IMG/VR virus record: IMGVR_UViG_3300006923_000013
Span: 21,788-85,787 of that record
Origin: a virus
Length of the DNA: 64,000 nt
Strand: one strand, 5' to 3'
The position numbers and the translations under genes were made by a program. The stretch's first letter is position 1. Each line of letters opens with the position of its first letter. Positions 17,792-58,124 of the stretch are shown here, piece by piece. The notes under the pieces are model-generated. The model worked only from the letters and a program-made list of their open reading frames with translations, was not told where the DNA came from and did not search any database.

Positions 17792-20700
17792 TTATTGTCC
17801 TAGTAGTTTTTGAATCATACCTCCTAAGAAGTATTCTTGTACTTGAGGATTAGGATTTTGTTGCATATTCCTCAATATCATTTGTATGTCGTTCTGTTGT
17901 CCTATTGGTTGATTGAACCCTTGAGGCATTTGTCTTCTTTTAGCAAGTAAAGTAGCTAACGATTCTGGTTCTTGGCCACCAACTTCTCCACCGTCTTCCA
18001 TAAGTCCACCTAATAGTCCACTAAGCATACCACCTATTCCACCACCTCCACCATCTTCTTCTTTTTTATCTCCACCCCCAAGTAACCCACCAAGTAGTCC
18101 ACCACCTTCTCCGCCACTAAGAGCTCCGAGTACAATAGGGGCCGCTTTAGCTAAAAGTGGCCAAAAGTACTCCTGCAATCCTGTATCGGGATTCGTAGTT
18201 CCAGAACCTCCCATAGACTTTAGCATGTTCTTCTCTGCTTGATTAACATGAACAAGTTCAGTATCTCCAAATCTTCCTTTCTTCTTAAGATTTTCAACTG
18301 ATGCTCCTCTTCTATATCCTCGGATTGGTCCCCCATATCTTGATTTTTCCACTTCGTCTTTATTCTTAAATAGATTCATTAATGTACTTACCATATCTCC
18401 TTGTTCGCCTTTCTTAGTAAAGGTGCCGTTGGTCTCTTCGAATCCAGTTGCACTATTGGCTGCATTGGATAATTGAGTATTGGTAAAGGCTTGGTTCATA
18501 GCTTTAGCTTGGTCCAATCCTAATTTACCTGTTGTAACTGCATTTTGTCCTAAGGCAGTATAATAGTTATCGAGGTTCTGTAGTGTTCGTACAGCTTTTG
18601 TGTCCTCTCCTTGCATTTGTCTGGCTTCACTTTGATTCTGAAACTGTGCAAGTTTATTCTTTTGAGCTATACTCATTTGATCATAGCCTAACTGGGTCTT
18701 CAAGTCTGCTTTTTGTTTTTGAGTATACGCATTTTGTAATTGTGCATTACGTGTTCCTGCAGATGCACTTTGATTACCTAATATCTGTGCTTTAAGGTCA
18801 GAACCTATTGCAGATAATGCTTGTTGCTTTTTAGCCTCTATAGTATCTAATCCTTGGTCTACAGTTCCTTCGGCTCTTTTCCCGAAGTTCCTAAAATGAT
18901 TCAGTTCTGCTGGAGTAGCGGCTCTATTAGCTTCAGTTATAGCCGCAAGTTCAGGGCCTAACTTCTGTAATATATCCATACCAAATTGATCTCCTGGAGG
19001 CTGTTTACTTTGCCCTTTGCCCATCTGACCACCTATGTCTTTAAACATATCAAGTATATCCTCCTGTCTACTTCTTGTTGGAGGTTCAGATATAGTAAGC
19101 TCAGGTGGAAGTGTTTTTGGGCCTGGAGCTGATTTTGGTATACTTTTAGAGGGCACACCAGACATTCCTTTCGGAGTCATTGGTACCATATCTCGTATTT
19201 TACTTCCTTCTAATGCAGCCGCATCTTTAAGTGTTCCTGGAATAAAACTAGGTAATGGAGCATATGGCATCTTCTCTATAGCTGGAGTGTCTACACTGGA
19301 AGTACTTCGAGGGTCTATAGGAGTAAAAGATGTTCTAGATCCTATATCCCTACCGTGTACAGCTTGCCCCGTACTCCAAGTCATTTGTTGTTCTTCCGAC
19401 ATAGATGCCCATAGTGCATTAGGATCTTTACCTATGGCTTCAGCATAAGAAATAAATTCTTCTGATGGATCTGTAATTACACTTGCTCCATCAGCATAGT
19501 TCATAATGCTATTTTTATGTCCTTGAGACAATGGTACTACCTTACCACCACGTTTGAATCCATTCTTAGTGATAGGCTTACCTTGCTGAAGCATCTCATC
19601 CATTTGAATCTGATCTACTTGTTCTTGCTGCTCTTTAGCTTTCTTCTCCTCTACTATTTGATTCTTATGTGCATTTTCTTCTGTTTCCAGATCTCCAAGC
19701 CTCTTCCTAATAGTATTCATAGCAAAGAGGTCTCTCTTTACATCTGGATCTAACATCTTCTCTTCGAGCTTTGCAGCTTCTTTCTCTCGCCTTTCTTTCT
19801 GTTTAGTGTGTTTTCCTTTAGGATATATAAATGTCTCTCCTCCTTCTACCTCTATACCTTCACCACCTTCTGCTTCTATTTCCTGTTGTCCTTGTCCTTC
19901 TGCAGGTGTTACTACAGCCATTCCACCATTATCATGTGATGGTCCCTGTAGTTTGGCATATCCTTCAAAGTTTTCGGGTATGATTAATCCACCATCAGGC
20001 CCTTGTTGCATACCTCCTGCTGGTGCATTTGGTGCAATTTGTCGGTCTCGCATCTGAAGTGCTTCCAGATGATTGGTATTTTGGAAATCTGTTACTGGTC
20101 CCCCGTCTTCCATGATTCCTCCTAAGAGTTCGCTTATCATGTCCATGCCAGGTATTTGCATGCCTCCACCTTTTCCGCCTTTGTCGCCTCCCATCATTCC
20201 TCCCATTCCTCCAGACAGCATTTGAGGAATCTGGGAAAGCATACCCATCATACCATTTCCTCTTCTTTCTTTTTGTTCATTATTACCTACAGATTTGAAC
20301 ATAGGATTAATATCCTGACGTACAACCTGATTACTCTGAGGCCCAGAGCGTACTCCCATCTGCTGATTATTTTTTACTCCTTTTTCTATATAATGTTGAG
20401 TAAGATCTTTCTGTCGAGCTAACTCATTGGCTTTATTGTTTCTTCCTCCAAGACCTTGCATCAACTGCGGCAATTGTCCTATCATAGAATGTGGTCCTGG
20501 AACCTTATCCATCATTCCACTACCCATACTGCCTCCTTGTCCCCCTCCCATACCAGGAAGACCCATTCCACCACTTTGTCCACCGCCTTGTCCAAGTCCA
20601 CCGAGTATAGGACCTAATATATCCATAATACCTCCCATACCACCATCTTGACCACTTACATCTGGGGGATTGTCTCCTGGAGTACCTCCTGGAGAAGTTG

Positions 20701-21076
20701 GAGGAAAACAACCTCCATACACACAGTCCACTTCTTCTCCCAGCCCATACTTAGGAATATTACCACCTTGCTCAAATGGTAGCTTAAAGTTACCAAGTCC
20801 GCCTCCACCTATTCCGCCAGGTAATTGCATACCTCCTCCTCCCATTCCTGGGAGATTCAATCCATTCATTTGTGGCATAGCACCCGCTATTCCGTTGCCA
20901 CCGCCTCCTAGCATACCCATAAGCTGCTCTAGTATTCCTCCCTTATTATCTGTATCGTCACGTACAAACTGATCAAAGCGCCCAGTTACCTGACCACCTT
21001 CATCATACTTATTTTCTTTTTTAAAGGTCTTAGCTAAGTAACTGTACTGCTTTTGACGTTTTTTTGAATGCTTCAT
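17792..21076 (-). CDS. Gly/Met-rich low-complexity virion cargo (ejection) protein, 1094 aa
   Basis: Directly after the muzzle gene; GPSHDNGG...EAEGGE block, coiled coils, repeated xxxGG motifs and amphipathic Gly-rich helices. Confidence 0.72.
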   Translation of the reverse strand: MKHSKKRQKQYSYLAKTFKKENKYDEGGQVTGRFDQFVRDDTDNKGGILEQLMGMLGGGGNGIAGAMPQMNGLNLPGMGGGGMQLPGGIGGGGLGNFKLPFEQGGNIPKYGLGEEVDCVYGGCFPPTSPGGTPGDNPPDVSGQDGGMGGIMDILGPILGGLGQGGGQSGGMGLPGMGGGQGGSMGSGMMDKVPGPHSMIGQLPQLMQGLGGRNNKANELARQKDLTQHYIEKGVKNNQQMGVRSGPQSNQVVRQDINPMFKSVGNNEQKERRGNGMMGMLSQIPQMLSGGMGGMMGGDKGGKGGGMQIPGMDMISELLGGIMEDGGPVTDFQNTNHLEALQMRDRQIAPNAPAGGMQQGPDGGLIIPENFEGYAKLQGPSHDNGGMAVVTPAEGQGQQEIEAEGGEGIEVEGGETFIYPKGKHTKQKERREKEAAKLEEKMLDPDVKRDLFAMNTIRKRLGDLETEENAHKNQIVEEKKAKEQQEQVDQIQMDEMLQQGKPITKNGFKRGGKVVPLSQGHKNSIMNYADGASVITDPSEEFISYAEAIGKDPNALWASMSEEQQMTWSTGQAVHGRDIGSRTSFTPIDPRSTSSVDTPAIEKMPYAPLPSFIPGTLKDAAALEGSKIRDMVPMTPKGMSGVPSKSIPKSAPGPKTLPPELTISEPPTRSRQEDILDMFKDIGGQMGKGQSKQPPGDQFGMDILQKLGPELAAITEANRAATPAELNHFRNFGKRAEGTVDQGLDTIEAKKQQALSAIGSDLKAQILGNQSASAGTRNAQLQNAYTQKQKADLKTQLGYDQMSIAQKNKLAQFQNQSEARQMQGEDTKAVRTLQNLDNYYTALGQNAVTTGKLGLDQAKAMNQAFTNTQLSNAANSATGFEETNGTFTKKGEQGDMVSTLMNLFKNKDEVEKSRYGGPIRGYRRGASVENLKKKGRFGDTELVHVNQAEKNMLKSMGGSGTTNPDTGLQEYFWPLLAKAAPIVLGALSGGEGGGLLGGLLGGGDKKEEDGGGGGIGGMLSGLLGGLMEDGGEVGGQEPESLATLLAKRRQMPQGFNQPIGQQNDIQMILRNMQQNPNPQVQEYFLGGMIQKLLGQ

Positions 21077-24000: not shown

Positions 24001-27000
24001 ACATCTTCATAAACTGTCTTATTAGGATGTGGGGGTAAATAAAGAGGAGCACTTGCGTACAGAACATTAGGATTTCCATATGAATCTCCCATTTGTGACC
24101 AGAATCGTTTCCTTTCTGTACAGTCGCTTTTTGCACCGCCGCTCTCTGCATCTTCTGCTTTTACTACTCTTCTAGCACATCTAGCATTAAATTGTGTATG
24201 CTTAAAAGCAAATCTAGATACAAAAGAATTTCCACCAAATAAAGGACCTGTATTTATAGACTTATACGGATTATTCTGTTGTACCTTAATAACACATGTA
24301 TGTGTAGGTAAATATACCAAACTGGATACATTACCATAGGCATTATATGCATTCTTTTTAAGTGATACATAATATGCAGTGATACGCCCTCGTTTATTTG
24401 TACCGTCATCCGATTCGCAAAATTCCCCTGAAACGTTATCTTCCAATCTATCACATGTAGATAAAGAAAAAGAAGAGTCAAGTGGACATTGAAATTGATT
24501 AGTAGCTCCCCATTCATTGTTTACAGTATTGCCTGCAACTGTAAAATGATTATTGAATCCTGGATTATTACCAGGATAAGGAACTCTGAACCATTCTTGT
24601 TCCCTATCAGAATACTCCTTAGACTTAAAGCTAATAGGCATACATTCCATAGCTGTATTGTTATCGAATGGAGCATCACCAAAAGTTTCTAAGAATACCT
24701 TCTCGAATGCCTCCACTTTAACAAAATCATCTACTCTTATATTAGATAATGGATATCCGTATATAGGATATGTTGTACTGTTCCATGCATCTCTAGGTTT
24801 AGGGCCATTACCTTCAGCAGTAGACACGATGCCTGCTGGATCGGGAGTAGCCCCCATATCGTACATAGTACGGACTCCATCATTGATATTACTGTATGGA
24901 ACTACAGAATGCTGATACGATGCTCTGGAATATATATAAGTAGTTCCGTTATCGTCTCTTCCATTAATGGGATTACCGATCCCAGATCCTCCTGTATTAT
25001 CATTGTGCAGATCATAGTTACTTGGAATATCACTTGAGTCATATTCGTTTGTTTGTCCTGTAAGTCCTAATCCTACATAAGTGTCCGTAGATTGTCTATG
25101 TGCTCCCTCTATACCATCATTATGACAGCAAGCAGTATTACATACTATATTCCAAGTGTATCCTATTAGGACACGTTCTACTTTAATATAGTCAACTCCT
25201 TCTATGGTTCCAAATTTAGAAAGTGGACCATGATAGGACATACTTGCATTAGGATATACAATAATATCTGTATCATATCCTATATTGATTCCCTCTGGAG
25301 ATTGGTCTCCGTCTGGACAACTATCGTTAGGATGAGCAGGTCTTCCCCACCCCCATGCGGCAGAAGGATATCCGTTGCCAAATTCAAACCAGTCAGAAGC
25401 AACTCTTGGTCGAGAAAGAGCATACAATGCAGAAGGAAGTGTGCCAAGTCCTAAACCAACTGTTATAAGGGGATCACGACCTTTAAACCACTTGTCCCAT
25501 TGATTATTCTGAACAAGCATATGGGTCAATGCAGATTTTTTCTTACTTTCATTTGTACAATTCAAGCAGCTTTCTGCTTCTCCTACCGTATTTCCTACTC
25601 CTCCTCCTATACCATAAGACGCTACGAATCCTGATGAAATAGGATTACCAGATCCAAATAGACTACCAGATCCGAAAGTTATATCATATACAGAATGACC
25701 TGCAATAGAAGTTTGCCCGTCATCTCCGCCTCCAAAAAGAGATACTTCTGGAGTATCTCCAAAGCCTGCTATATTAACATCTCTATGCCCTCCATGCGCA
25801 CAAGCAAAAGAAGATATGTGTTTATTGAAATAATTACCCTGTTGCATCCAGGTACACGCACCAAAGAAAGGTCCTGAAGGTAAATTCTTACCGTGGAACA
25901 TCTTAAATGCAAAATGATTGTAATAAGCAATTCCCTTATCTATTACAGTTTTATCCTTAATCTCTTGTTTGGCCTGTACAATTTTGAATCCTTGCACAAG
26001 ATGTGCGTATTCTTCTGGTGGCTTTACGTTTGTAGCTTCAAAACCCATAGATACTGTCTTGGGCCCGCTTGCTTCATAGACATATGAAGGAATATTATAA
26101 AATTCATCTATCTTTCCATTGGTTATATTCCTATCTCCGTACTGGTGGGGTTCAAGTGTGGTATCTGGAAATTTATGATGTCTGACCTTATCCATAGTAA
26201 AGGCAGCCAGTTTTAAATTTGTAACAGGCTGGAAATAAAACCCATTCCCTGTTCCATTATGCATCTGTTCCCAAGCATTGTCAATAGAGTCTTGCTCTAC
26301 TGCTGTAATAGGATCAAGTATACTGGTAGCTGGATTTCTTTTTGAGTAAGGATATACAGGAAGACCTTTACAATCTCTAGAGTCTGGGTATCTATCAGAC
26401 CTACATTCGTAATATGCCATCTCACCTTTAGTGACATAGCTACCAGCAGCAGTGTCCGTGTACTGTTGTGTTCTAATAGCAGTATTGTATACTTCCCATC
26501 TTTCTATATCTCCAGTACCATCTATAGTATTATTAAGGTAATGGTGAGTATTTATATCTTTAGTATCTGCATAATTTGTACTTGATACTATTATACTTGT
26601 GTCCCATCCGTTCAAGGCTGGTGCTCTATTATGCTCTGCTTTAACTGCAGATACATAATTATTCGCAATAGGATTATTATAGTCTCCTTCTTGTATAAGA
26701 GCTCCGCCGTCTGCTCCTTCGTTTTTCTTTCTACCTGGTATGTGATAACCAAATGTCTCAGATCCGTCTTTAAATACCCAAACCACAGCAAGTGCTGCAA
26801 TTTCATCTCGCATATGTGTACGATATGTAAAATAATATTCTCCAGACTGTACAGAATCTTTATTTGCATCTTCTGCTGATACCGTAGTAGTAGCGTAAGT
26901 TATTTGAATATCCTGGGCTGCCTTTTGAAATAGATCATGTTTTATCTCATTTTCAGATACGTTACCAAGTACAAGTCTGTTCTTGATCTGTGCTATTGTC

Positions 27001-37710: not shown

Positions 37711-38100
37711 TTAAACTAAAAGTGCCATTGCAATCTCTCTTGGAGTGTAACCATCAGGCTGCACGTTATCCAACCATGCTTGAGGAGATGTTTCAAAAGA
37801 AGTCCTTAGTTCCGAACTCTCTATGTTTATATAATCCGCCACCTCATCACTCCTTGTTCTTAGGAAAGCGGGCATTGCGGGGTTCTCCTCCAATGTAAGC
37901 TCTTGAAGAGTGGACACATTATCCAACCTATCGTTCCACCCTACATTTATCCCTGAGATACCGTGAATGTCTATGTTCTGATGTTTGGTCTCATGGAGTT
38001 GCCCGATGTTCACAATAGACAATTGATATATCTCGTTCTGTTGGTCTGCTATCCAAAAACCATCTACTCCTGCTCTATTATCAAATTCTTTATTTGTCAT
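37711..38100 (-). CDS. Hypothetical protein following the BspA-like gene
   Basis: Start moved to ATG at 38100 (MTNKEFDN...), which forms a TAATG overlap with the upstream stop. Confidence 0.6.
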   Translation of the reverse strand: MTNKEFDNRAGVDGFWIADQQNEIYQLSIVNIGQLHETKHQNIDIHGISGINVGWNDRLDNVSTLQELTLEENPAMPAFLRTRSDEVADYINIESSELRTSFETSPQAWLDNVQPDGYTPREIAMALLV

Positions 38101-39263
38101 TATGCTGCTCCTCCATCGGTTATCCCACCCCACTTCGAGATGAGACTTGTTCTTGCTGCTTCCGCAGCTCCTCCGCTTGTGTATTTACTTCCTCCAAAGT
38201 TAACTGTTCCTGAATATGCCATTGCTCCCTGAGCATCATAAGCTATCAGTAGTGCATCGTAATTCGCTGTTGACAGTCCTGTGGCATTTTGCATGAACCC
38301 TAAAAAGGCAGAAACCTGATTAACATCCCAAGCACTGATGTCCTGATCGAAAGCATCCGCATCGAAGAACATATACACCATTCCATTGACAACAAGACTC
38401 GTATCCCAAGATCCTATAGGCTGATTGAAGGCTTTCGCAAGTTGGAACATTCTTGTCATTGTAGTTGCCGCTCCTGTTCCCCATCCACTTATATTCTGAT
38501 TGAAGAGTGTTGCGCCTCTGAACATCTCCTGAAAATTTGAAACACTTGTGACCACCCAAGATGATATGTCCTGATTGAACGTGGATGCCGATATGAACAT
38601 CTGCTTCATACTCGTTGCTGATGATGTATCCCAAGTGGACAGATCCCCATCGAAGACAGTGCAACTTGTGAACATCGCTTCAAACTTCAGGACAGACCCT
38701 ACATCCCAAGTGTCTATGCTTCCATTGAAACTTGTACAGTTTCCAAACATGTTAAGCATGCTTGTAACGCTACTGACATCCCAAGTAGAAAAGTCAGGGG
38801 TTGTCAGTGATGTGCAATTAAGGAAGGTGTAGTCCAGATTTGTAGCAGATATTGTAGGCGCATCCGTAGCGGAGATATCTAAAGCTGAACAACCGTTGAA
38901 TGCACGGTTAGTTGAAATATCCAGAGTTCCAAAATTTGAAATGTCAGTTATCTTATCGTCATCTCCTCCATTGTTGAAGTAGACACCTTGCACATCACCT
39001 GTTATAGTAATGGTATATGTTCCTTCTCCGCTACCAAAGGTTATAAGGAGATCTGAATCCGTATTATGCGAACCTGACCCTCCATCTGAATCTTCCCAAG
39101 TAAAGTTGTTCGTAGACCCTGTATCGAAAGGAAGGGCAAACTGGTCGCTATTGGACGTTCCTGCGTTATTGGATTTGACCTGAAATACAAAATCAGTATT
39201 TACAGGCGCTCCTTCCCCAGTTGAGTAGTTTGTTGATATCCCTATTCCTAATCCTAATCTCAT
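38100..39263 (-). CDS. BspA-family / DUF285 leucine-rich-repeat surface protein (putative adhesin)
   Basis: About seven 25-aa repeats of type F(N)QDISxWDxSxVTxMxxMF; PKD-like N-domain (GTYTITITG); C-terminal W.ITDGG. Confidence 0.88.
   Translation of the reverse strand: MRLGLGIGISTNYSTGEGAPVNTDFVFQVKSNNAGTSNSDQFALPFDTGSTNNFTWEDSDGGSGSHNTDSDLLITFGSGEGTYTITITGDVQGVYFNNGGDDDKITDISNFGTLDISTNRAFNGCSALDISATDAPTISATNLDYTFLNCTSLTTPDFSTWDVSSVTSMLNMFGNCTSFNGSIDTWDVGSVLKFEAMFTSCTVFDGDLSTWDTSSATSMKQMFISASTFNQDISSWVVTSVSNFQEMFRGATLFNQNISGWGTGAATTMTRMFQLAKAFNQPIGSWDTSLVVNGMVYMFFDADAFDQDISAWDVNQVSAFLGFMQNATGLSTANYDALLIAYDAQGAMAYSGTVNFGGSKYTSGGAAEAARTSLISKWGGITDGGAA
38310..38800 (-). repeat. Coding tandem repeat (DUF285 25-aa units)
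   Basis: WDVSSVTSMLNMF, WDVGSVLKFEAMF, WDTSSATSMKQMF, WVVTSVSNFQEMF, WGTGAATTMTRMF, WDTSLVVNGMVYMF, WDVNQVSAFLGFM; boundaries approximate. Confidence 0.85.
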
Positions 39264-47478: not shown

Positions 47479-48903
47479 TTAGTTTTGCTTCAAAATCAGT
47501 TCTCCACAACGGGTAACGTCATCGATCTGAACACCACACTGATCATGAACGATCATTGTATAAGCATCCTTAGCGTTTGACATCAATCCACCTTTGTTTG
47601 CTCCGTAAGGAGTTTGGAGTCCTGATACATAACCTAACTTGTAGCCTCCTTTCTTGGAAACATACTTGATATTAGCGTCTCCACCTTTAGAACCAAAGTC
47701 CATGAATGTGAATCTCATTGATTCCAAAGGAACCTGAAGTTCATCATGGTAGATATGGTTGATCTCACGATCATCATATACTGGGTTGTGTCTAAGAGTA
47801 AGTGTAATACCATTAGGTCCTCGATATTTTACAAACTGACCACCGAACTCAAGATTTTGTCCTGAACCTCCGATGAATTTCGAATCTACAGTCAAGAAAG
47901 GCGCTGATGCATTCATCATTGCTTGGTGAAATGCAAGCATTCCATATTCCCCTGTGTAGGCTACGATATTTCGGTTTGACATATCAACACGTCCGAAGAA
48001 GATGTCCAAGAGATACTCTCGAATCAATTTCTCAGTAAGTGTATTATAAAAGTGTACGTGAGAATCCTCAAGCAACTCCTGTACTCCTGGGCCCGTACGT
48101 GCGATACGTCCGTTTGCTCCAGCAATAGAAGACTGTGCTCGGTTGTACCACAACCCACGTTCTTTTTCCTTGTGCCATTGGATCCAATATTCGGCTTCAG
48201 CATACTTAAGCCATTTGTAATCCTTATATACTTTGCCATTTGCATCCATTAATGCTACAACCAATGCTTGGTTAGCAGCATCTCCTGTTACAGAGTACTC
48301 TTTTCTATACGTAGATAGATTAGAGCGGAGTTTTAAGGGCATTGCGTAGGTAGTAGATCCACTTTGATCACCACCTTCTTCGTACACGGAGAACATTTTG
48401 CTCCATTGTACTCCTACAGCTTGAGCTGCAGCGCTTAGTGATGCAGTTTGATCATCTGCCATTAATCGAACAACGTATTCGAATCCAATTCCAGGACCTG
48501 CAGCCGAAACTGGGCCAGACTGGATACGTACTAATTGTCTTGTGGTTCCTGCGCTTGGAGAAATTACGTCTCCTGGCTTAAACCAGTCTTCATCTAATGT
48601 GAAGGTCATTTCAGAAAGTGTAATACCGCTTCCAGATGCAGCAACTGTTGCTACTAGTGGACGTGATGACGCTCCCATCATTTCCCATTCCCAGTCAAAG
48701 GATGCGATTTCTGATGTTCTGCCCATACCTTTCGTTGCTGCCATTAGAGGATTATCCGCAACGCGAGATGCTGTAAACACTCTTGTGAGAACCTTATCAA
48801 ATTTATGCGGTTCAGCCATGAATGCAGCACCTAGGTGGTTTACCTCTGTAAAATTAGCATGAAACGGCCTTGTAAGGACGGCTAACTTTGATTGTGCTCT
48901 CAT
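47479..48903 (-). CDS. Major capsid protein (crAss-like, HK97 fold)
   Basis: 474 aa; FTEVNHL, WEWEM, TGPGVQELL, YTGEYG...F, HNPVYDD motifs; canonical terminase-portal-scaffold-MCP order. Confidence 0.9.
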   Translation of the reverse strand: MRAQSKLAVLTRPFHANFTEVNHLGAAFMAEPHKFDKVLTRVFTASRVADNPLMAATKGMGRTSEIASFDWEWEMMGASSRPLVATVAASGSGITLSEMTFTLDEDWFKPGDVISPSAGTTRQLVRIQSGPVSAAGPGIGFEYVVRLMADDQTASLSAAAQAVGVQWSKMFSVYEEGGDQSGSTTYAMPLKLRSNLSTYRKEYSVTGDAANQALVVALMDANGKVYKDYKWLKYAEAEYWIQWHKEKERGLWYNRAQSSIAGANGRIARTGPGVQELLEDSHVHFYNTLTEKLIREYLLDIFFGRVDMSNRNIVAYTGEYGMLAFHQAMMNASAPFLTVDSKFIGGSGQNLEFGGQFVKYRGPNGITLTLRHNPVYDDREINHIYHDELQVPLESMRFTFMDFGSKGGDANIKYVSKKGGYKLGYVSGLQTPYGANKGGLMSNAKDAYTMIVHDQCGVQIDDVTRCGELILKQN

Positions 48904-48928
48904 TTTGTTTTAGTTTTAAATTGTTTTG

Positions 48929-50194
48929 TTAAAAATCCCAGGCTTCACTTTTTTCCGCTTGTCCTGTCTTCTTTCCTCCTCCGAACTTAGCGTGCGCACC
49001 CGTGCGCTGCTTGCTGTTCTGCAAAGTGGCTTTCAGCTTAGAAGAGTAGTCTGTTTTAGTTTTCTTTTCTACTCCTTTAAGATCGAAATTTGTCATCCTT
49101 AAATATGCTCGTAGAATAAAATCTTCTACGTTATTCCCAGCTTCTAACTCGTCTGCTTGGAACTTTGTAACATATTGCGGGCCTTGAGGGCTATCAATCT
49201 TTACCGAGGTTTCTGTCATATAAGCCATAAGATCTTTCTTTATCTTCTTACTCATTGGAAATCCATGAATCTCTTTTGACTCTGTGACAGTTTCCTCTAT
49301 TGTTTTGAGCACTTCAGCTCGTTTTTGCTCTTTTACTTGAGCATCCTGGGTAGCCTTTTGCTCTAATTGAGCTTTTTGACTTTTGTTATACTGTACGAGG
49401 CGTTCCTGCGCTCGTTCAGCTTGTCTTTCCAGTTTTCCAAGATCTTCATAATCTTGTAATGTTTCCTGAGCTTCTTCCGCACTATCTCCCCTAAGTCTTA
49501 GGAATTCTTTTAGTACTGCTCGTTGATTATTAATATTCTTTTCTCCTTTAATGTCCAATGCAGATACATCAGGCATGGAGTAAACATTCGAAAATTCCGA
49601 AACTTTTCCTCCTTTTATAATGTGTCGCAAGAGATCTTTTCCCTCTTCAGGGAGATTTCTTTGGAATAATTCTATCTCTTCCTTTACTCGGGATTCGACA
49701 GTTGTTGAAAACGCATCTACAATACCATCAAGAGTAGGTTCAAATTCCTCCTCGTTAAAATCAAGTAGTTCGTTTTCTTTTAAAAGATTAGCAAATACAG
49801 AGAATTCATTTTCTTCTGTTTCCTCGTTATCTACTTCTACCTTTTTATCTTTAGGTTTCTCTTCTTCCTCTTCCTCATCTTCTGAATCCTCGGCGTCTTC
49901 TTTACTTTCGTCTCCTACTTTATCTGGATCAAAATCTTCGAAAACTTCTACCTCATCATCCTCTAGTTTTAGATCTAGTTCACTTTCATCTTCGTCCTTA
50001 TCTTCAACTTTAGTTTCAGTTTTAGATTCTGTATCTAGATTAAGACTTCCCAGTACAGGATCATCTTCTCCATCACTAACTGATTTATCTAAAAGTGAAT
50101 CTACAAGACTGGAATCATCAATGTCCCAAATTTCTAAGTCGCTTTTACTTTCTGTGATTGGTTTTTTGTCCAAAGTTTGAGCTTCTTTTGTCAT
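48929..50194 (-). CDS. Acidic scaffold-like protein (crAss gene 77-like)
   Basis: 421 aa; very D/E-rich N-half and coiled-coil C-half; immediately upstream of the MCP. Confidence 0.7.
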   Translation of the reverse strand: MTKEAQTLDKKPITESKSDLEIWDIDDSSLVDSLLDKSVSDGEDDPVLGSLNLDTESKTETKVEDKDEDESELDLKLEDDEVEVFEDFDPDKVGDESKEDAEDSEDEEEEEEKPKDKKVEVDNEETEENEFSVFANLLKENELLDFNEEEFEPTLDGIVDAFSTTVESRVKEEIELFQRNLPEEGKDLLRHIIKGGKVSEFSNVYSMPDVSALDIKGEKNINNQRAVLKEFLRLRGDSAEEAQETLQDYEDLGKLERQAERAQERLVQYNKSQKAQLEQKATQDAQVKEQKRAEVLKTIEETVTESKEIHGFPMSKKIKKDLMAYMTETSVKIDSPQGPQYVTKFQADELEAGNNVEDFILRAYLRMTNFDLKGVEKKTKTDYSSKLKATLQNSKQRTGAHAKFGGGKKTGQAEKSEAWDF

Positions 50195-50210
50195 AATAAT
50201 TTATCGTTTA

Positions 50211-50218
50211 CAAATATA
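50211..50218 (-). promoter_or_regulatory. Bacteroidota -7 element TATATTTG for the scaffold/MCP operon (second copy at 50286-50293)
   Basis: Two consensus matches in a 185-bp AT-rich gap; the proximal one is 16 nt upstream of the ATG. Confidence 0.55.
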
Positions 50219-50379
50219 ATTGATTTTGTAGTGTAACCATAACAAGTTTTGTTATGTAGTTTCACTTCTATTTTGTTTCTATAGCCAAATATACTATTTT
50301 AGGTTAATATTTTTATCTAGATATATACTTTTATATATATATTCTCCGTTTTTAAAAAAATATATATCCCATCTCCAGA

Positions 50380-53379
50380 TTATTGATTTGTTCGTACTGC
50401 ATACTTCTTAGCTGAGGTATCTCCTTCCTGACTACCAAAATATTGAGCCATGTTCCGAACAATTCCATAAGGACTCAAGGCTTTCCCTGTAGCTTCTTTT
50501 AGGTTGTCGATTGGGGTTCCTCCTCTGTTTAAATGCGAATATGCATCATTATTAAAATTATAAGTGTCTAGTACTAAAGTGTCGGGTTCTGCAGTAAATG
50601 TTTCTGGGGTAGTAACTATTGAAGCTCTCCCTAAAACAGATTGTGTCTGGAACCCAGGGTCTCCAAGTAAAGAACCAAAGGTTCTTATCCCTGAATCGGC
50701 ACGATATGCCTGGCTGGGTCTAACGGCATCGTAATCTTTATAGTCTATATATGATTTTCCAGCCGCTAAGTTCTTTCTAGTGATATCTCTTAAGACATTA
50801 ACTTGGTCATCTGTGAAATCTCCTTCTGTTCTTACTGGCGGCCTATCGTTAGGGCCATAATTCATGACCTGCTTTCTGAAAATATCATCCGCAAGAGCGG
50901 ATATTGTAGTCATTGCTCCAGGAAAAGTCGCCTCTAGAAATCCTGTTACAGGGGCACCTTCTCTTATATTTCTTCTTGTTTTCCCTTTGCTTTTCGGATA
51001 ATCAGTCTTGAACTTCTGATAAAGAGTGTATGTCTTTTCCCCCCAGATTCCGTCCTCAATCAGTCCTTCTCCAAGTTTCCCTAATTCTGGATATATCTCA
51101 TTTAAAAACCTCTGTAGTACACGTATATTAGTTCCGTTTTCAATTACAGGAGAATGAATTTTAGAAGTTTCATTTTCTACTTCTTCTCCTCCGCCATCCT
51201 TAGTAACTTCTCCTCCTTTATCAAACTGTTGTACTTTTTGTTGCGTTCCTATGTCTTTAGGACTCACTTCTACTACAGGTGTACCTGTATATAAATATTC
51301 AGGTCTATTTTTCTCTCTGGAAAACTCCCAACGTAGTCTATCATTTGTGTACATATTATCAGGTCCCGCTAGGAATCCACCGTCTTCTCTCCATCTTCCT
51401 CCTATAAATTCACTGCCACCTTTTTGTGCAGAATATTGAGATTCGTCAGAGAATGTAGGATGGGATGGCTTTTTATATGTATCAGATCCGTGATTATCAG
51501 GATCTGTATTATCTTTCCAAGCATTGGATTTCCAATATCCTTGTATGTCATATACTCCTATATCTTTAGGATTTGCCCAACCCGCATCCATCCATAATGC
51601 ATAATGTTGCATTTCCAGATCAGATAGTTCTGTATTATACCTCTCCGTCATAAAGTCTTCTATTATATACTCTCTATCTCTATCTGGAGTATCCATGAAT
51701 ACTTTCTCTAACTCTTCGGGTATCTTAGGTTTTCTATTCTGTAGTGCTGCGCCGTATATACTGTCGGCATCATTTATATCCAGTTCGTATTCTTCAGGTT
51801 CTGGCGGTCCGACCTGTCCTTCTACTTCTCCCCCTTCTGCATACTTTGCTTTCTCGCACTCTGTACATCCAACTTCTCCTCCGTGTTTAAACTCTTCCTC
51901 TCCAGCTTGTGCTCTTATCTGTTGTCCTCCAAAAAGAGCCGCTCCTGTTATTCCGAACATTTTTAAAGCTTTCAATTTATCGCTCAAAGAGGTTTCCTTT
52001 TTAAAAAAAGAATTACGTTTTCCTACTGTTCTATGTTGAGCCTGCTCTAATTCTTGTAGTATATGTCTATCATATATATCCGAAGAACGTACAGCTTGTA
52101 TATATCTTTCTTGTAGATCTTTTTTAAAGTTCTTAAATAACTCGGTCCCTTTTACAAGTTTTTTTCCGCTCTTGACTTCAAAACTCTCTTTTGACATTCT
52201 AAATACTTCATTGAATATAACTTTTGCTGCGGCTATTTTTTCAGAATGTAATTCATCTGGACTTGAGTGCCAGTTTAGATCTGCAATACGTTCTGCTTCT
52301 TCCTTACTTGCCCCTTTCGGAATAGGTACAGGATCTTTCAAAATTTTTCTAAAAAACCTTCCTGATTCGGTGTCCTCTCTGGCTACGTAATAGCCGTATT
52401 TCTCATCGTATATTGTAGTACTATCAAAAAATGAATTAGAAGCTACATCAGGTCGAATTCTAGATGCTCTATGTCCTCCTTCATGTGCTGCTATCTCACC
52501 ACTTCGAGCGAGCGTACTGTTTTTATTTACATACGTGAATGTAGCTCCAGTACTCGGATCATAAAATCCAGCTCCAGGTTCAGCCCCCCTTCCTTTTAGA
52601 AAGGCTTTCTGGGAAGAATTTAATAATTGTGGTTCTCCACTTGGCCCTCCAAATCCTACATCTTTATACAAGGGATTATCACTAATTGCAAGGCTTGTAC
52701 CGTCTCTAAAAGGATTAATTTGAGTATACTCAGGGTTATCCCGTATAAAGCCAAGATATTCTTCTATTTCTAATTGTGTAATTGCTGGGTTTTCAGCCTT
52801 TAGCATCTTTTCTACAACCTCTGGTCTTAAGTTTTTAGTAGAAGGATCATAAAACATAGCTTCTGTAAATCGATTTCCATCATTTACTGACTCCCCGTGC
52901 TTTTTTAATCTTTTTAGAGTATCCTCTGCAACTTCCTCAGTAGCATCTATACCTTTTTTTATATAACTTTTTGCATTACTTATATAAGGTTTTACAGTAT
53001 CAACATAAGGTTTGATATAAGGCTTTACTGCATTTTTTATTTTTCCACCTGGTACGAAAGGAATCATTAGTCCTGTTCCGTACAATGCGGCATCTGTATA
53101 CTCACCTTTACGAAGAGCCTCTATCGTACTAGCAGCATCGGCTGCTTCTCCCGCTACAGGTAACCATCCCAGATTATCTCTTCCAGATTGCTCATCAAAA
53201 CTAAGTCCTCCACTGGGAAGAAAATGCTGAACTTCTTTTCGCAATCCTTTTGCATCTACAAACTTACCAACAGAAGAGTCCTCAAGCCCTGCCCACAATT
53301 TCTCAAAAAGAGACTGCTCCTTCTCAATCGGCGCTATTGCGTACTTCTTCTTAGGTGGATCTTTTTTCTTTTTTGCCAT
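50380..53379 (-). CDS. Modular ~999-aa protein: pre-toxin-TG-like helices, zincin metallopeptidase, unknown HPTFS domain, peptidoglycan-binding domain, unknown C-domain
   Basis: Likely start ATG 53379 (MAKKKK); WLPVAGEAAD...IPFVPG; AAHEGGH; KKPSHPTFSDESQYS; VLQRFL...DGIWGEKT; LGRASI...DTYNFN. Confidence 0.75.
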   Translation of the reverse strand: MAKKKKDPPKKKYAIAPIEKEQSLFEKLWAGLEDSSVGKFVDAKGLRKEVQHFLPSGGLSFDEQSGRDNLGWLPVAGEAADAASTIEALRKGEYTDAALYGTGLMIPFVPGGKIKNAVKPYIKPYVDTVKPYISNAKSYIKKGIDATEEVAEDTLKRLKKHGESVNDGNRFTEAMFYDPSTKNLRPEVVEKMLKAENPAITQLEIEEYLGFIRDNPEYTQINPFRDGTSLAISDNPLYKDVGFGGPSGEPQLLNSSQKAFLKGRGAEPGAGFYDPSTGATFTYVNKNSTLARSGEIAAHEGGHRASRIRPDVASNSFFDSTTIYDEKYGYYVAREDTESGRFFRKILKDPVPIPKGASKEEAERIADLNWHSSPDELHSEKIAAAKVIFNEVFRMSKESFEVKSGKKLVKGTELFKNFKKDLQERYIQAVRSSDIYDRHILQELEQAQHRTVGKRNSFFKKETSLSDKLKALKMFGITGAALFGGQQIRAQAGEEEFKHGGEVGCTECEKAKYAEGGEVEGQVGPPEPEEYELDINDADSIYGAALQNRKPKIPEELEKVFMDTPDRDREYIIEDFMTERYNTELSDLEMQHYALWMDAGWANPKDIGVYDIQGYWKSNAWKDNTDPDNHGSDTYKKPSHPTFSDESQYSAQKGGSEFIGGRWREDGGFLAGPDNMYTNDRLRWEFSREKNRPEYLYTGTPVVEVSPKDIGTQQKVQQFDKGGEVTKDGGGEEVENETSKIHSPVIENGTNIRVLQRFLNEIYPELGKLGEGLIEDGIWGEKTYTLYQKFKTDYPKSKGKTRRNIREGAPVTGFLEATFPGAMTTISALADDIFRKQVMNYGPNDRPPVRTEGDFTDDQVNVLRDITRKNLAAGKSYIDYKDYDAVRPSQAYRADSGIRTFGSLLGDPGFQTQSVLGRASIVTTPETFTAEPDTLVLDTYNFNNDAYSHLNRGGTPIDNLKEATGKALSPYGIVRNMAQYFGSQEGDTSAKKYAVRTNQ

Positions 53380-53546
53380 CAGATTTATAGACACATATAC
53401 CCTTAGGGCAGTTACATTGAATAGGTGCGACTTCACACCATTTTGTTACTTCAATCTTTTTTCTTTGCTTTCTTTTTGTCGCCAGGTTTCCTTCGCTTTT
53501 TCTGCACCCACTTAAGTATTAACAAAAACAGGGCAATTTCTAACAT
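53351..53546 (-). pseudogene. Small membrane-anchored ORF interrupted by an apparent 1-nt frameshift
   Basis: ATG overlaps the portal stop (TAATG): MLEIALFLLILKWVQKKRRKPGDKKKAKKKD*. The +1 frame continues IEVTKWCEVAPIQCNCPKGICVYKSDGKKEKRST* with no ATG of its own. Confidence 0.4.
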
Positions 53547-56026
53547 TATTTCTCTGATTTCTTACTTCTTTGGCTCGCACGATCCTTAGCTTTTTCTGCT
53601 CTTTCGTGTGCTCGTGCCTTTGTAGCTTCGTCTTTCTTAGCCTTTATCTCATCTTTTTTAAGATCTATCTTCTTGTCTTCCTGGTCAAGCTTTCGTTTAG
53701 CTTGCTCCTCTTGTACTCGTAGTTTGTCTATTTCAAGTTGATCTGGGACATTATTATCGTTTATGTCCTGGTCCATTTGATTCTTGAACGAATTGATCTC
53801 TGCTACTTCTATCTTAGTGGCATTGTCTTCATCGATCTTGTACTTTTCAAGCTCCATCTTATCTTTCGCCAACTTATTATCAGCTTCGATCTTAGCCATT
53901 TGTGCCTGTTGTCCCTGTTGCGCCATTTCTGACTCTCTTGCTTTACGGGTATCTTCTGCTTTTTCGAGTAGCGTTCTGATCTCTCCACTTGATTCGCTTG
54001 TAAGCATTTTAACAATGTCGGACAATTCTGCTGTTTGGTTCTGTAGTGCTGCATGTGCGAGTTGTTTCATTGTCATGAATAACTCTTGATCTTTAGCTGA
54101 ATCTGAAGTAAATAGACCAAAAGAAGACTCAGTTAACATTACAGGATCCACTTTAAGGACCTGGAGTGTCATATCATCTAATATATACTGAAGTTTCTTA
54201 GGTTCTGATTCTCCCCAGGCTACTTTAGCTGTATCAATAAGAGATTCAAGGACATTTCCTTTAAGTTGATTATGTGCATAGAACCAATCTTCTGTAATAT
54301 GTGAAGATTGTACCACTGCTTGTTGTGTGTTACCAACCAATTCATTAGGTCCTACTTGGCCTTCACGTTGCTTGGTAACTCCAGACACTTCTGAGCACTG
54401 TTGCTCTAAGTATTCCAACAGTCCTATTTTCTGCTGAATAGCTTGTGCCTGAGACAGATCGATAGCCTGCCATTGATTGAAATTACTTGGTTTGTTTCTT
54501 GCCCCCTCTTCGTTAGGGTTAATAAACGCTATTCCCATTGCGTCCATATAATACATCCATGTCTTCATATCAACTCCCATAGATGTAGGGATCTGATTAA
54601 TATCTACTAGGAATTTCTTACCCTTATCGTTGGCAAGATCGAGTTCCAGTCTATACATTATGATATTATATAGATATTGATACGGCTTCATCCTATCTAT
54701 CATAGATACTGGAGCCGAGTTCAGGTTATTATACGCTATACCCGTGTACCCGAGTTTACAGGAATACAGATCATCTAGATCTTTAAACTGATTAGGTTTT
54801 GCACGTATGTTCAGGTACACATCATCTGCTACCTTAGTACCTTCCCATATCTCTGGAATCCATTCCCATCGTACTTCAAGATCTCCACTTTCCTTATCTA
54901 ATTTATACGTCTCATCTACTATAAGTTCCTGTTCTTGCATTTCCTCATCCAAGAATTTCAAGAATCCTATCTTACGTAGAGACCGCCACTCACAATGGGT
55001 CACAGTTATGTACCGCGACCCATCGGTGGAAGAGTCATCATCGTCCCAGTCTAATGGAGTGCTGGAATTGAATAGATCATCTCCGTCCGTGTAGGAGAAT
55101 TCGGGAGAACCTAGAGGATGAGACTTTCCGATCACGGACGAATCGGAATAGAGATCCTTTATTTCTGTTTCAGTCATATACTCTCCAAACGTATCCACCA
55201 CTGACCCTGGTGTCATTCGCATAGAGTACTTGGCCCATTGGCCTTTTTGTATATAATCTAAATCTGGATCCTTATCGTAATCAAAGTAAAGAGGATTTAC
55301 TACCCTTATATCAGGTTCCCCATTTACAATTCCATTCCAATATATCTCTTCTCCTGCTATAAGTGCATGTTTCCACCCCTTATTGAATTTTTCACGAAGG
55401 TGTTTAGACTTTTTCAGATATGCTAGTATCTGGTTACCCATTATTTCTCTAGAGGTCTGGTATGTACGCTTCATGTATTCCTCTATCTGAGGCGGCGTCA
55501 TTGCTTGTTCTATTTCCTGGGCTTTCTGTTGTTCAGCCTGGGCCTGCTCGGGATCCATAGATTCTGGTGGTGTAGAACCTATTCCCTGCTTTTGAAATTC
55601 TTCCTGTACTTTTCTCTGAATGCCTTCCTTTAAAAAACTTTGCAGAAGACTTTTCTTTTCTTCTTCTCTTTCTGTAATAGCATCAGGATTCGTAGCAATT
55701 ACTCGAAAATTAAAAGGACGTTTTATCTCTTCGCCGAATAATACACGCAGTTTAGGAGACATTATATCATAGTGCCTCATCTCTGCTGGCATTTCTCCAG
55801 CTAAATCTTTCCCATACGGTTTACAGACATACTCGAAGTCATCTCTGTCCAGTTGTCCGTTAAATAAATTGTAGTTTGCTTTCTTCCTCGATAGATCTGT
55901 TCTACCATCAAAGCTGGTAGATCCGTATCCTTGAATATCGTCCAACATGGATTTTCCCCACTTGTTCTTATTCTTTCTTTTTGCTGCCAGTGTCAGGCGT
56001 TGTTGCGGAAAGGAATACTGTCCCAT
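53546..56026 (-). CDS. Portal protein
   Basis: 826 aa directly after TerL; NYNLFNG, L.GEEIKRPF, WIPEIWEG, SMIDRMKPYQYLYN, SGVTKQREG motifs of crAss portals. Confidence 0.92.
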   Translation of the reverse strand: MGQYSFPQQRLTLAAKRKNKNKWGKSMLDDIQGYGSTSFDGRTDLSRKKANYNLFNGQLDRDDFEYVCKPYGKDLAGEMPAEMRHYDIMSPKLRVLFGEEIKRPFNFRVIATNPDAITEREEEKKSLLQSFLKEGIQRKVQEEFQKQGIGSTPPESMDPEQAQAEQQKAQEIEQAMTPPQIEEYMKRTYQTSREIMGNQILAYLKKSKHLREKFNKGWKHALIAGEEIYWNGIVNGEPDIRVVNPLYFDYDKDPDLDYIQKGQWAKYSMRMTPGSVVDTFGEYMTETEIKDLYSDSSVIGKSHPLGSPEFSYTDGDDLFNSSTPLDWDDDDSSTDGSRYITVTHCEWRSLRKIGFLKFLDEEMQEQELIVDETYKLDKESGDLEVRWEWIPEIWEGTKVADDVYLNIRAKPNQFKDLDDLYSCKLGYTGIAYNNLNSAPVSMIDRMKPYQYLYNIIMYRLELDLANDKGKKFLVDINQIPTSMGVDMKTWMYYMDAMGIAFINPNEEGARNKPSNFNQWQAIDLSQAQAIQQKIGLLEYLEQQCSEVSGVTKQREGQVGPNELVGNTQQAVVQSSHITEDWFYAHNQLKGNVLESLIDTAKVAWGESEPKKLQYILDDMTLQVLKVDPVMLTESSFGLFTSDSAKDQELFMTMKQLAHAALQNQTAELSDIVKMLTSESSGEIRTLLEKAEDTRKARESEMAQQGQQAQMAKIEADNKLAKDKMELEKYKIDEDNATKIEVAEINSFKNQMDQDINDNNVPDQLEIDKLRVQEEQAKRKLDQEDKKIDLKKDEIKAKKDEATKARAHERAEKAKDRASQRSKKSEK

Positions 56027-56072: not shown

Positions 56073-58124
56073 TTATTTTCGCGCAAACATATTGTTCATG
56101 TTGTTTACTAGAAACTCAGAAGCAGCATTTCTATATGGCTCTTTCTTTATTTCTCGTCCATATTCTTCTTCTACGCAAAACATAAGTTGCATAAAAGACA
56201 TCACCCTGTCAAAGTTACCTTCTCGATGATATAGTATGAGCTCTTCTAATAACGCTGGGGATGGTATCAGGTCCATATTATATATAGGTGTACCGTCTAC
56301 ATTCTCTCCTCTTTTGGTCCACAGCCATCTAAGTATGAACTTCTCCCCTGCATCTTTAAGCTTATCATTCATATGACATCCCTTTATACGTGATACTGTA
56401 GAATTGGTTATAACCTTAGATATAACGTTATCTGGTTGATCTGCCAATAGATGGAGTTTACCTACCCGTTTAAAGTAACTTAATACTTCTCCACGATCAT
56501 TCTCGTACATTATCTCACAACCTCCATAATATTCAGATAATAATTCAAGGTTCCTGTTATAGATCTCAATACTATCTGGTCTTCCTACATACTCTGCTAC
56601 GATCTCATCGTATCCGTAGTCGAATTTCTGATATGTTTTATATACATACGCAGAGTTAAGTGATTTACTTCCTGATTTATCAAATGCCACGGGATCCAGT
56701 CCTATTTTGAAGAGACCATGTGGAATCTCTTCAGGTGGATGTTGGTACACAACTACACATCCATCCTGAGGGTCATTGGCTCTGTGTGGAAATTTATCCA
56801 TCGGATATAACTTCTTTTCAAGATCTGGACGGAAACGAACCTCTCCTTCTTTTTCAAAAAGGGTCCCAGGTGTTGCTAATTTCTTATATCTGTTATCAGA
56901 TTTTAACTTCGCCAGTACGTTGTATAACTCTATTGCAGGAAATACAGCTCCTTCATTTCTAAGGAAAGCTTCCTTAGGAGTATGAGGGTGCTGGGTCACC
57001 ATCATATTATAGGCTTTCGGATCTGCTTTTTTCTTTGATTCCCGTTCCAGATCTATATCCGATATGGCCTCGGCACGCATAGCATTACCCGCTTTATCTA
57101 TAAAAGGTTCCCTGAACCAGGCGTCATCTACAAACCATCCCGCCTCTCCAACAGCAGACTCATCGTATATATTCTCATAACTACGGAGTCCGTAGGAACT
57201 CGGGTTATAGAACATAGCCTCGAAGTCAGCATTTGTTCCATTCTTACTATTACCTCCTGTTCCATATAGTATAGGAATACCGATCATGATATTACCATCC
57301 TTAAAGAGTGGGTAGGATCTCTGATATGCCTGCATAAGTCCAGGCCAATCTCCTGCTTCCTCAAAAAGCATGCGTTCTGCTGTACGTCCTACAGATTTCT
57401 GTGGTGCATCTTTAAATGACAAGGCAAGAATCTCGGATTTGTACCCTTTATCTATATTTACACCAGAATAAGGATCCTTCTCTACATATCCAGCTTTGAT
57501 GTGATCCTGGCGATCTGTAAGTGTTCCTTTTACCCAATCAGTATTCTCATTAATGAAATTTATCATATTCTTGGCCATTTCCATTGTATTGGCCCAGAAT
57601 GTTTTTTCATATGCGGCGAGTATTGATACAGAGAACGGAAAGTAATGATACTTCCACGCCATACCGAATGCATTCTTATAAGAAAATCCTTTACGTCTTG
57701 CTTTTACAACTATCATTCCCTCGCCAGCAAGCTCCGCAGCTTCCAGCTCATGGTACCAATAGTAGTCCATATCCAAGAACTTAGGGAATGTATCGATCTT
57801 ACGATCTCTTTTCCCATCGTTAATAGTAGCAAGTATCCTACCGAAATTAAGATAAGCATAATGCTCACCAGTAATTCGGACACCACCAATAGTATGCCCA
57901 TTCCTACACCTAGTTTCTTGCTCATCCCAATATTCTATATATTCACTGGTCCCATCAGGGGCACCTGTGTAATAGCCATGACGCAAAAAATGTTTCGCAT
58001 CAAGGCTGAATAACTCTGTATTTATAAATTTTAGGTACTCCTGACCCGTGTGTCTTACAGGACTTTCCAGTTTAGGGTCAAGTAGACTCCATTTCTCCGC
58101 ACATATTATCTTCTTATCACTCAT
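56073..58124 (-). CDS. terL: Terminase large subunit
   Basis: ITGEHYAYLNF, Walker A KARRKGFSY, Walker B LFEEAG, coupling motif GTGG, nuclease IGLDP and GNFDRV. Confidence 0.95.
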   Translation of the reverse strand: MSDKKIICAEKWSLLDPKLESPVRHTGQEYLKFINTELFSLDAKHFLRHGYYTGAPDGTSEYIEYWDEQETRCRNGHTIGGVRITGEHYAYLNFGRILATINDGKRDRKIDTFPKFLDMDYYWYHELEAAELAGEGMIVVKARRKGFSYKNAFGMAWKYHYFPFSVSILAAYEKTFWANTMEMAKNMINFINENTDWVKGTLTDRQDHIKAGYVEKDPYSGVNIDKGYKSEILALSFKDAPQKSVGRTAERMLFEEAGDWPGLMQAYQRSYPLFKDGNIMIGIPILYGTGGNSKNGTNADFEAMFYNPSSYGLRSYENIYDESAVGEAGWFVDDAWFREPFIDKAGNAMRAEAISDIDLERESKKKADPKAYNMMVTQHPHTPKEAFLRNEGAVFPAIELYNVLAKLKSDNRYKKLATPGTLFEKEGEVRFRPDLEKKLYPMDKFPHRANDPQDGCVVVYQHPPEEIPHGLFKIGLDPVAFDKSGSKSLNSAYVYKTYQKFDYGYDEIVAEYVGRPDSIEIYNRNLELLSEYYGGCEIMYENDRGEVLSYFKRVGKLHLLADQPDNVISKVITNSTVSRIKGCHMNDKLKDAGEKFILRWLWTKRGENVDGTPIYNMDLIPSPALLEELILYHREGNFDRVMSFMQLMFCVEEEYGREIKKEPYRNAASEFLVNNMNNMFARK

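Follow-up and report, generated by a model that had tools for sequence, protein, structure and literature searches.

In this study we analysed a stretch of 64,000 nucleotides of viral DNA (positions 21,788 to 85,787 of IMG/VR record IMGVR_UViG_3300006923_000013; this whole stretch is called the window below) and found that the open reading frame (ORF) beside its portal gene, the target, encodes a mosaic protein of 999 amino acids (aa) built of five modules (i to v). The target is most likely a polyvalent cargo-type protein of known kind, which bears an undescribed Gly-Gly joint motif and an undescribed, widespread domain, module iii. That such a protein is packed as cargo and injected to help breach the host cell wall appears fairly probable to us. 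The new elements are the portal-adjacent slot in which the gene lies, an exchange junction placed to the base between two nearly identical genomes, and module iii as characterised here.

Results

The target is a mosaic protein in a hypervariable slot

An exhaustive HMMER search with the target gave 951 representative proteins at E<=0.001, and none of the matches was collinear with the whole 999-aa protein. Its segments recur singly and at differing positions in proteins of 130-5084 aa: aa 296-505 were found again at the C-terminus of a 1553-aa protein, aa 730-999 both N-terminally in a 588-aa protein and centrally in a 1548-aa protein, and module iii (aa 575-700) accounted for the majority of the best 150 of the 951 matches. 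Used as the sole query, aa 1-500 brought up no homolog in the 275-875 aa range, and aa 731-999 brought up P0022 only. Searched as a whole, the target gave no match in the PDB sequence search, and in Pfam, PHROGs and NCBIfam only a chance match to ApoLp-III and the C-terminal phrog_7348. The preliminary description had proposed a beads-on-a-string protein of independent, exchangeable modules, and this is upheld by the recurrence of each module at other positions in proteins of very different length; the ORF, the five modules and the quoted motifs were likewise all found where it had placed them (Table 1). The large proteins that share modules with the target bear the cell-wall domains LysM, Phage_lysozyme, SLT and YkuD, and also SET, ADPrib_exo_Tox, ART-PolyVal, LPD3, LPD23, LPD38, DdrB-ParB, InPase and crAss_CARG1.

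For comparison of the locus, 26 related loci were fetched by their portal, the contigs L046 and L053 were added later, and the modules were mapped on all of them. Every phage with a major capsid protein (MCP) 70-92% identical and a portal 61-73% identical has a gene between portal and gene77, the next gene downstream. In these sister phages the slot alleles measure 448, 534, 752, 860, 990, 1043, 1383 or 1917 aa and begin with at least four unrelated N-termini, and module iii is their sole constant part. One allele consists of SLT and module iii (L003), another of the hairpin and ART-PolyVal (L009), a third has two copies of module i (L007) and a fourth joins module iii to a phage lysozyme (L053), while modules iv and v together occur in the slot only in the target allele and L046. 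Relatives with ~32-40% identical portals have an empty slot, the portal being followed at once by gene77. The corresponding stretch of crAss001 is occupied by fibre, tailspike and lysis genes (holin-like, L,D-carboxypeptidase). That of the gut crassvirus cr113_1 contains a small "zincin" gene and encodes a protein of 385 aa, in which a similar hairpin and the motif HEMGH occur. The slot between portal and gene77/MCP is thus hypervariable and recombination-prone. A single architecture fixed across relatives, which would have spoken against domain shuffling, is clearly not what was found, with alleles from 448 to 1917 aa in one slot.

Gly-Gly joints mark the module borders

The joint motif was counted as [FYWM]xxGGx[VILM], and its expected number was taken from shuffles. 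The target has 4 copies against 0.17 expected, at aa 108, 497, 513 and 719, that is, once after the module-i hairpin, twice between modules ii and iii and once between iii and iv. The consensus is P-x-x-[YF]-[QKAE]-[DEN]-G-G-x-[VIL]. In the 150-odd relatives 147 copies were counted against 16 expected, and for 141 copies of module iii the motif lies within 60 aa upstream in 43 and downstream in 44 (median downstream distance 17 aa). The motifs sit in low-confidence linkers at module borders. Among the ORFs of the window only the target and the 1094-aa ORF after the muzzle gene are rich in the motif; the latter had no Pfam or NCBIfam match and no detectable similarity to crAss001 gp45.

An exchange at such a joint was found in contig L046, whose identity to the window is 99.8% over positions 47893 to 51882, while past 51882 the two are unrelated. 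In the DNA alignment the switch falls on the GGAGGAGAAGT codons of the first GGEV (51871-51882). Upstream of the switch L046 has different modules, related to those of L002 and L004, which end at another joint motif. Since the microhomology shared at the junction is only ~11 nucleotides (nt), an assembly chimera is unlikely. Of the internal homology-block ends 27/98 lie within 10 aa of a joint motif, compared with 6% for random positions; it counts against our interpretation that these high-scoring segment pair ends are not independent and partly reflect the motif flanking module iii, which is common to all alleles. The separation of modules ii/iii and iii/iv by GG motifs, as first described, agrees with the breaks of the homology blocks at these places. 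To judge from the sequences, the joints are real module borders and points of exchange between relatives.

The joints could also be true processing sites, at which the zincin in cis, or zincins in the virion RNA polymerase (vRNAP) polyprotein, would cut [FY]xxGGx[VIL] after the second Gly and free modules i-v in the capsid or after ejection. The 9-fold enrichment of the motif in low-confidence linkers at module borders, its confinement within the window to the target and the C1-position ORF, and the presence of a zincin in cis all favour such cutting. For polyvalent proteins, processing by zincins has been put forward, P1 DdrB being one that is processed (PMC5512222). However, many motif-bearing relatives (e.g. 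P0005, P0006) lack an HExxH of their own, the motif also flanks stand-alone module-iii proteins, where there is nothing to release, and the role as exchange joint already accounts for its position. We therefore regard processing at the joints as possible and on balance doubtful.

Module iii is a widespread and sharply conserved domain

Module iii is an uncharacterised domain of ~125 aa, named here after its HPTFS motif. In alignments of 38 and 23 sequences (A3, A6) the elements YD..G, H-x2-D-x2-KKP-x-HPTFS-x2-S-x-Y and GG-x-W were invariant and E-P was near-invariant. An AlphaFold2 model had a predicted local distance difference test (pLDDT) score of 82.8, with the core above 90, and this confident model had no structural neighbour in the PDB. 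Module iii had no match in Pfam, PHROGs, NCBIfam, the PDB profile search or the ESM atlas, and the only papers retrieved for the HPTFS motif were unrelated ones on Helicobacter ICEHptfs. The preliminary description had left modules iii and v unassigned, and so they stay: module iii is without a match in the databases searched and module v is without a fold match, its model being of moderate confidence. Given the invariant His/Asp/Lys/His/Ser/Glu residues, an enzymatic activity of module iii is plausible.

The domain occurs as a stand-alone protein of 130-160 aa or at any position in proteins up to 5084 aa. It was found in at least 438 IMG/VR contigs (searched with one exact pattern) and in 14 bacterial genomes, mostly of Proteobacteria; among 50,697 GenBank phage records only Azobacteroides phage ProJPt-Bp1 has it, and BFVD added three gut crassviruses, one of them with the annotation glucosaminidase-like domain. 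In the genome of Duodenibacillus massiliensis (L035:5893-10713) a prophage encodes a 1607-aa polyvalent protein with an N-terminal module iii and, behind it, LPD3 and DdrB-ParB, and module iii therefore reaches well beyond the phages of Bacteroidota. In ProJPt-Bp1 the domain stands at the N-terminus of PJPA_041 (L124:6836-14360), a 3481-aa 'putative structural protein', which is weakly collinear with the 4392-aa vRNAP-type ORF of the target phage, including the catalytic Asp motif.

The named upstream neighbours of module-iii genes in 36 independent viral loci all belong to structural or morphogenesis PHROGs (virion structural protein, head-tail adaptor, portal, TerL, tail protein, major head protein, internal virion protein), and 0 to lysis or replication. 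Where module-iii genes occur in bacterial genomes, the gene before them encodes a portal of SU10 type (E=2e-215) or T7 type (E=8e-148), TerL or an 'internal virion protein'. A general rule that module-iii genes adjoin the portal was rejected, the portal being directly upstream in only ~5/36 viral loci.

These neighbourhoods also bear on a different account, in which the target is a head-assembly or portal-associated protein like MuF/SPP1 gp7, with module iii as the docking part, the other modules as passengers and the GG motifs as uncut joints or docking handles. Adjacency to the portal is seen in this phage and in two unrelated lineages of portals, no element other than module iii is constant in all sister alleles, and MuF-type proteins, which have this genomic position too, are fused to variable effectors (PMC5512222). 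Against docking stand the rarity of a portal directly upstream, the occurrence of module iii on its own or anywhere in giant proteins, and the invariance of His/Asp/Lys/His/Ser/Glu despite three unrelated portal families, which fits a catalytic or metal site better. We give this account little credence.

Modules iv and v and the question of a lysis role

Module iv has the three-helix peptidoglycan-binding fold of PG_binding_1 (PF01471). It scores 9 bits against PF01471, where the cut-off is 23 bits, and is the sole candidate in the genome, at the exact place; the profile of its family (A4) matches 9h68 with E=0.0016, and the relative P0125 scores 27 bits. The first proposed assignment as a peptidoglycan-binding domain is supported by profile and fold. 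Module v is marked by the invariant pattern TP(E)...PDT...D.Y(D/N)FN and in relatives is always preceded by a peptidoglycan-binding-like segment. It matches the C-terminus of phrog_7348, which is labelled 'endolysin', and forms part of gp40 (1893 aa) of Pelagibacter phage HTVC115P as well. A fold search with a model of aa 726-999 (pLDDT 66.5) recognised module iv only, and module v went unmatched at that moderate confidence.

With these two modules the target might be taken for an endolysin or a part of the lysis system, made late and attacking the wall from inside when infection ends. Peptidoglycan-binding domains of the module-iv kind sit at the N-terminus of many endolysins, the PHROG label of module v points the same way, Amidase_2, Phage_lysozyme, SLT and YkuD were not found elsewhere in the 85.8-kb genome in six frames, and it is the corresponding interval of crAss001 that has the holin-like and L,D-carboxypeptidase genes. 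Nevertheless, known endolysins do not resemble a protein of 999 aa that combines a zincin with three non-lysin modules, and there is no adjacent holin. One sister allele bears ART-PolyVal, an effector that modifies host proteins, the gene neighbours of module iii were structural and never lysis genes in the 36 loci, and the modules are shared with the verified cargo protein gp45 and a vRNAP-type protein. By Pfam, PHROG (the phrog_7348 label aside), PDB and fold search no recognised endolysin catalytic domain was detected in the target; catalytic domains of an undescribed kind might be present in modules iii and v. The genome-wide search covered five lysin families, so another lysin may exist, for which a weak M15-like match is one candidate. 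We consider a pure lysis role quite improbable; a dual role, as cargo and in lysis, may exist.

The M15-like match is a stretch at 15252-15329 (-), near the C-terminus of the 866-aa C2-position ORF (15189-17789), which resembles Peptidase_M15_4 weakly (15.3 bits, E=0.0025, below the cut-off). It is possibly a second wall-active cargo module or the missing lysin.

Modules i and ii

Module i is characterised by W..FE.S.VGKF.DA.GLR followed by G.Y.DAALY...LPF..GP and ends in the first copy of the joint motif, FVPGGKI (aa 108-114). In relatives it occurs in 1-2 copies inside proteins of 739-2256 aa, and gp71 of gut crassvirus cr113_1, at the same locus, has a hairpin like that of module i. The preliminary description had compared this hairpin to the pre-toxin TG domain (PT-TG, PF14449), an assignment that did not stand. 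The PT-TG model had no match in the phage genome even at E<=10, while control genomes do match, and 0/25 relatives matched it at E<=0.001. Module i resembles PT-TG at the level of the pattern only and is a larger domain of its own, of ~120 aa.

In module ii the HExxH motif is kept in four relatives (HEGGH/HEGGH/HETGH/HEYGH), together with a helix W-x-S-x-x-E-L-H-S-E ~75 residues later; both HExxH and the ELHSE helix are kept in P0055, P0032 and P0007. This conservation of HExxH and of the downstream Glu-bearing helix is in line with the zincin first proposed, and the arrangement looks like that of a gluzincin. Module ii had no Pfam or PDB sequence match, and the lead from the ESM atlas, viral or LPD23, was weak (0.86-0.91).

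Genomic setting

The window represents the late-gene arm of an uncultured, divergent crAss-like podovirus, whose 85.8-kb record is 92% complete by CheckV, and every one of its large ORFs lies on the minus strand. The order of genes is TerL, portal, target, gene77-like, MCP and ring 3/4 protein, all of it a late or packaging context on one strand. The placing of the gene directly beside the portal gene is correct, with the portal upstream and the gene77-like and MCP genes downstream. The 421-aa gene77-like protein, the putative scaffold of the preliminary description, is 26% identical over 361 aa to gp70 of cr113_1 (E=4e-16). In cr113_1 itself (L001, NC_055896) in-frame TAG codons occur in structural genes, near a tRNA annotated as Gln, and translation is clean only if TAG is read as Q.

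The target is a single open frame from 53436 to 50380 (-), and its start is likely the ATG at 53379, giving 999 aa. An identical protein (P0002) is encoded on a 90.6-kb contig, and the C-terminal half was found again at 99.8% nt identity in the independent contig L046, so the ORF is real. Scans of the spacers flanking the target for sigma-70 promoters and terminators gave only chance-level results. In the 185-nt spacer between the target stop and the start of the gene77-like gene are two TATATTTG motifs (Bacteroidota -7-like), at 50211-50218 and 50286-50293 (-), and none is present in the 166-nt portal-target spacer; over the whole window the count of this motif is at chance level. The placement of TATATTTG suggests one transcript for portal and target and a separate promoter for gene77/MCP.

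The 1094-aa and 866-aa ORFs occupy the positions of the crAss001 cargo proteins C1 and C2, and the 4392-aa ORF, too, lies beyond the head genes. A 387-aa ORF at 38100-39263 (-) matches DUF285 strongly (PF03382, E=2e-71, three repeats), which is unusual for the tail-gene region of crass-like phages.

Table 1. Positions in the window of the target, its modules and motifs, and neighbouring genes
Feature	Position	Strand	Description
Whole target ORF	50380..53379	-	999 aa and stop; mosaic, most likely polyvalent protein
Module i	52930..53319	-	aa 21-150; ~120-aa conserved domain
PFVPG	53047-53061	-	
Module ii	51940..52902	-	aa ~160-480; zincin-like metallopeptidase region
HEGGH	52471-52485	-	
ELHSE	52240-52254	-	within W.S..ELHSE
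Linker with two joint motifs	51823..51891	-	FKHGGEV, aa 497-503, and YAEGGEV, aa 513-519
GGEV	aa 500, 516, 722	-	three copies in the target
Module iii	51244..51747	-	aa 545-712, core 575-700; uncharacterised ~125-aa HPTFS domain
YNTEL	51625-51639	-	
HPTFS	51448-51462	-	
GGRW	51391-51402	-	
Joint motif FDKGGEV	51205..51225	-	aa 719-725; homology with sister allele L002 stops here
Module iv	50989..51159	-	aa ~741-797; PG_binding_1-like three-helix domain
LQRFL	51103-51117	-	
DGIWG	51040-51054	-	
Module v	50383..50952	-	aa ~810-999; C-terminal domain
IDYKD	50734-50748	-	
YNFN	50551-50562	-	
TerL	56073-58124	-	
Portal gene	53546..56026	-	phrog_6547, E=4e-175; upstream flank of the variable slot
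Gene77-like protein	48929..50194	-	421 aa; downstream flank of the slot
Crassvirus MCP	47479-48903	-	PF23898, E=1e-112
Muzzle protein	21078-28004	-	PF25731; ring 1 also in this part of the window
1094-aa ORF	17792..21076	-	directly after the muzzle gene, C1 position; six [FYM]xxGGx[VI] copies against 0.62 expected

Discussion

The cargo reading draws on a verified precedent and on a described class. crAss001 gp45 is a cargo protein found in virions by mass spectrometry and cryo-electron microscopy and resolved in capsid and tail (PMC10172136). It has segments in common with three module-iii proteins (E=2e-26, 1.5e-14 and 2e-10), and its single copy of the joint motif, at aa 260-266, lies at the start of the segment common to P0150. 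Iyer et al. 2017 argue that polyvalent proteins are packed and enter the host along with the DNA, and that zincin domains of their own often process them (PMC5512222). On these analogies and the genomic context, the target would be made late, together with the head genes, be loaded into the capsid as cargo and be extruded through the tail upon infection. In the periplasm the peptidoglycan-binding module iv would anchor it to the cell wall, and modules iii and/or v may act on the envelope or on host proteins and so open the way for the DNA and the virion RNA polymerase, a role that SLT, lysozyme or ADP-ribosyltransferase modules would take in sister phages. The zincin module ii may trim the chain into pieces, or be an effector itself, and the [FY]-x-x-G-G-x-[VIL] peptides would mark the joints of the modules as points of exchange among relatives.

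Several points weigh against this. Presence in the virion, ejection and cleavage of the target, that is, its packaging, its injection and the cutting of its joints, are read from context and analogy. Modules iii and v have no assigned catalytic activity and their enzymatic role is conjecture, and the zincin call for module ii comes from motifs. The target itself matches no polyvalent-specific Pfam family and not crAss_CARG1, its links running through homologous modules elsewhere. The 1094-aa ORF has no similarity to gp45 and may be called cargo by its position only. Finally, a conventional endolysin was looked for in the 92%-complete genome and not found, and a lysis role therefore retains some room.

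A bolder version of the cargo reading would make module iii a metal-dependent envelope or peptidoglycan enzyme of a new fold, the standard ejection warhead of podoviruses, and [FY]xxGGx[VIL] a dedicated punctuation of crassvirus cargo, both recombination joint and zincin cut site after ejection. We consider this version unlikely.

Crassviruses are among the most abundant phages. To our knowledge it is not known how they cross the envelope of Bacteroidota, nor what role their cargo has beyond carrying the RNA polymerase. The locus described here shows a second cargo-type slot, beside the portal, which evolves by exchange of whole modules at a defined peptide joint, and an exchange has been caught at single-codon resolution between two 99.8%-identical genomes. 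Module iii is common and sharply conserved, though nearly absent from cultured phages, and keeps company with lysozymes, transglycosylases and LysM. Knowledge of its function, and of whether the joints are cut, would make crassvirus entry testable and could yield new cell-wall-active enzymes.

Among the known systems, T7 gp16 is a large ejected podovirus protein with an N-terminal SLT domain. Like the podovirus internal virion proteins, the target has a wall-directed module, its sister alleles carry SLT or lysozyme, and 'internal virion protein' occurs among the neighbour PHROGs. Unlike the podovirus virion hydrolases, the target allele has no known hydrolase domain, and its gene lies beside the portal and not after the tail genes. 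With the MuF/SPP1 gp7-type proteins the target shares the portal-adjacent late gene and the combination of a constant part with swappable effector parts; it differs from them in that no MuF domain was detected and the constant part is the undescribed module iii.

The likeness to the crAss001 cargo protein C1 (gp45) consists in the joint motif of gp45 and the segments it has in common with module-iii proteins. The two differ in that gp45 follows the muzzle gene and the target follows the portal, and gp45 has no reported zincin or peptidoglycan-binding domain. Direct comparison of the target with gp45 gave no phmmer match, nor did the target match crAss_CARG1 (PF25725).

Compared with the polyvalent proteins (PMC5512222), the target differs in matching no curated family, and its modules i, iii and v are missing from the domains described there; in that paper neither crassviruses nor a Gly-Gly joint motif is named. 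Domains of recognised polyvalent proteins (LPD38, LPD3, LPD23, ART-PolyVal, DdrB-ParB, InPase) are connected to the target through proteins with modules i or iii, not directly. As expected of a polyvalent protein, the target unites at least two unrelated domain types, namely a zincin motif, a peptidoglycan-binding fold and three more modules. Like the polyvalent proteins (PMC5512222), it is a chain of disparate domains encoded among the portal and terminase late genes, with an HExxH zincin-like hub beside peptidoglycan-directed modules.

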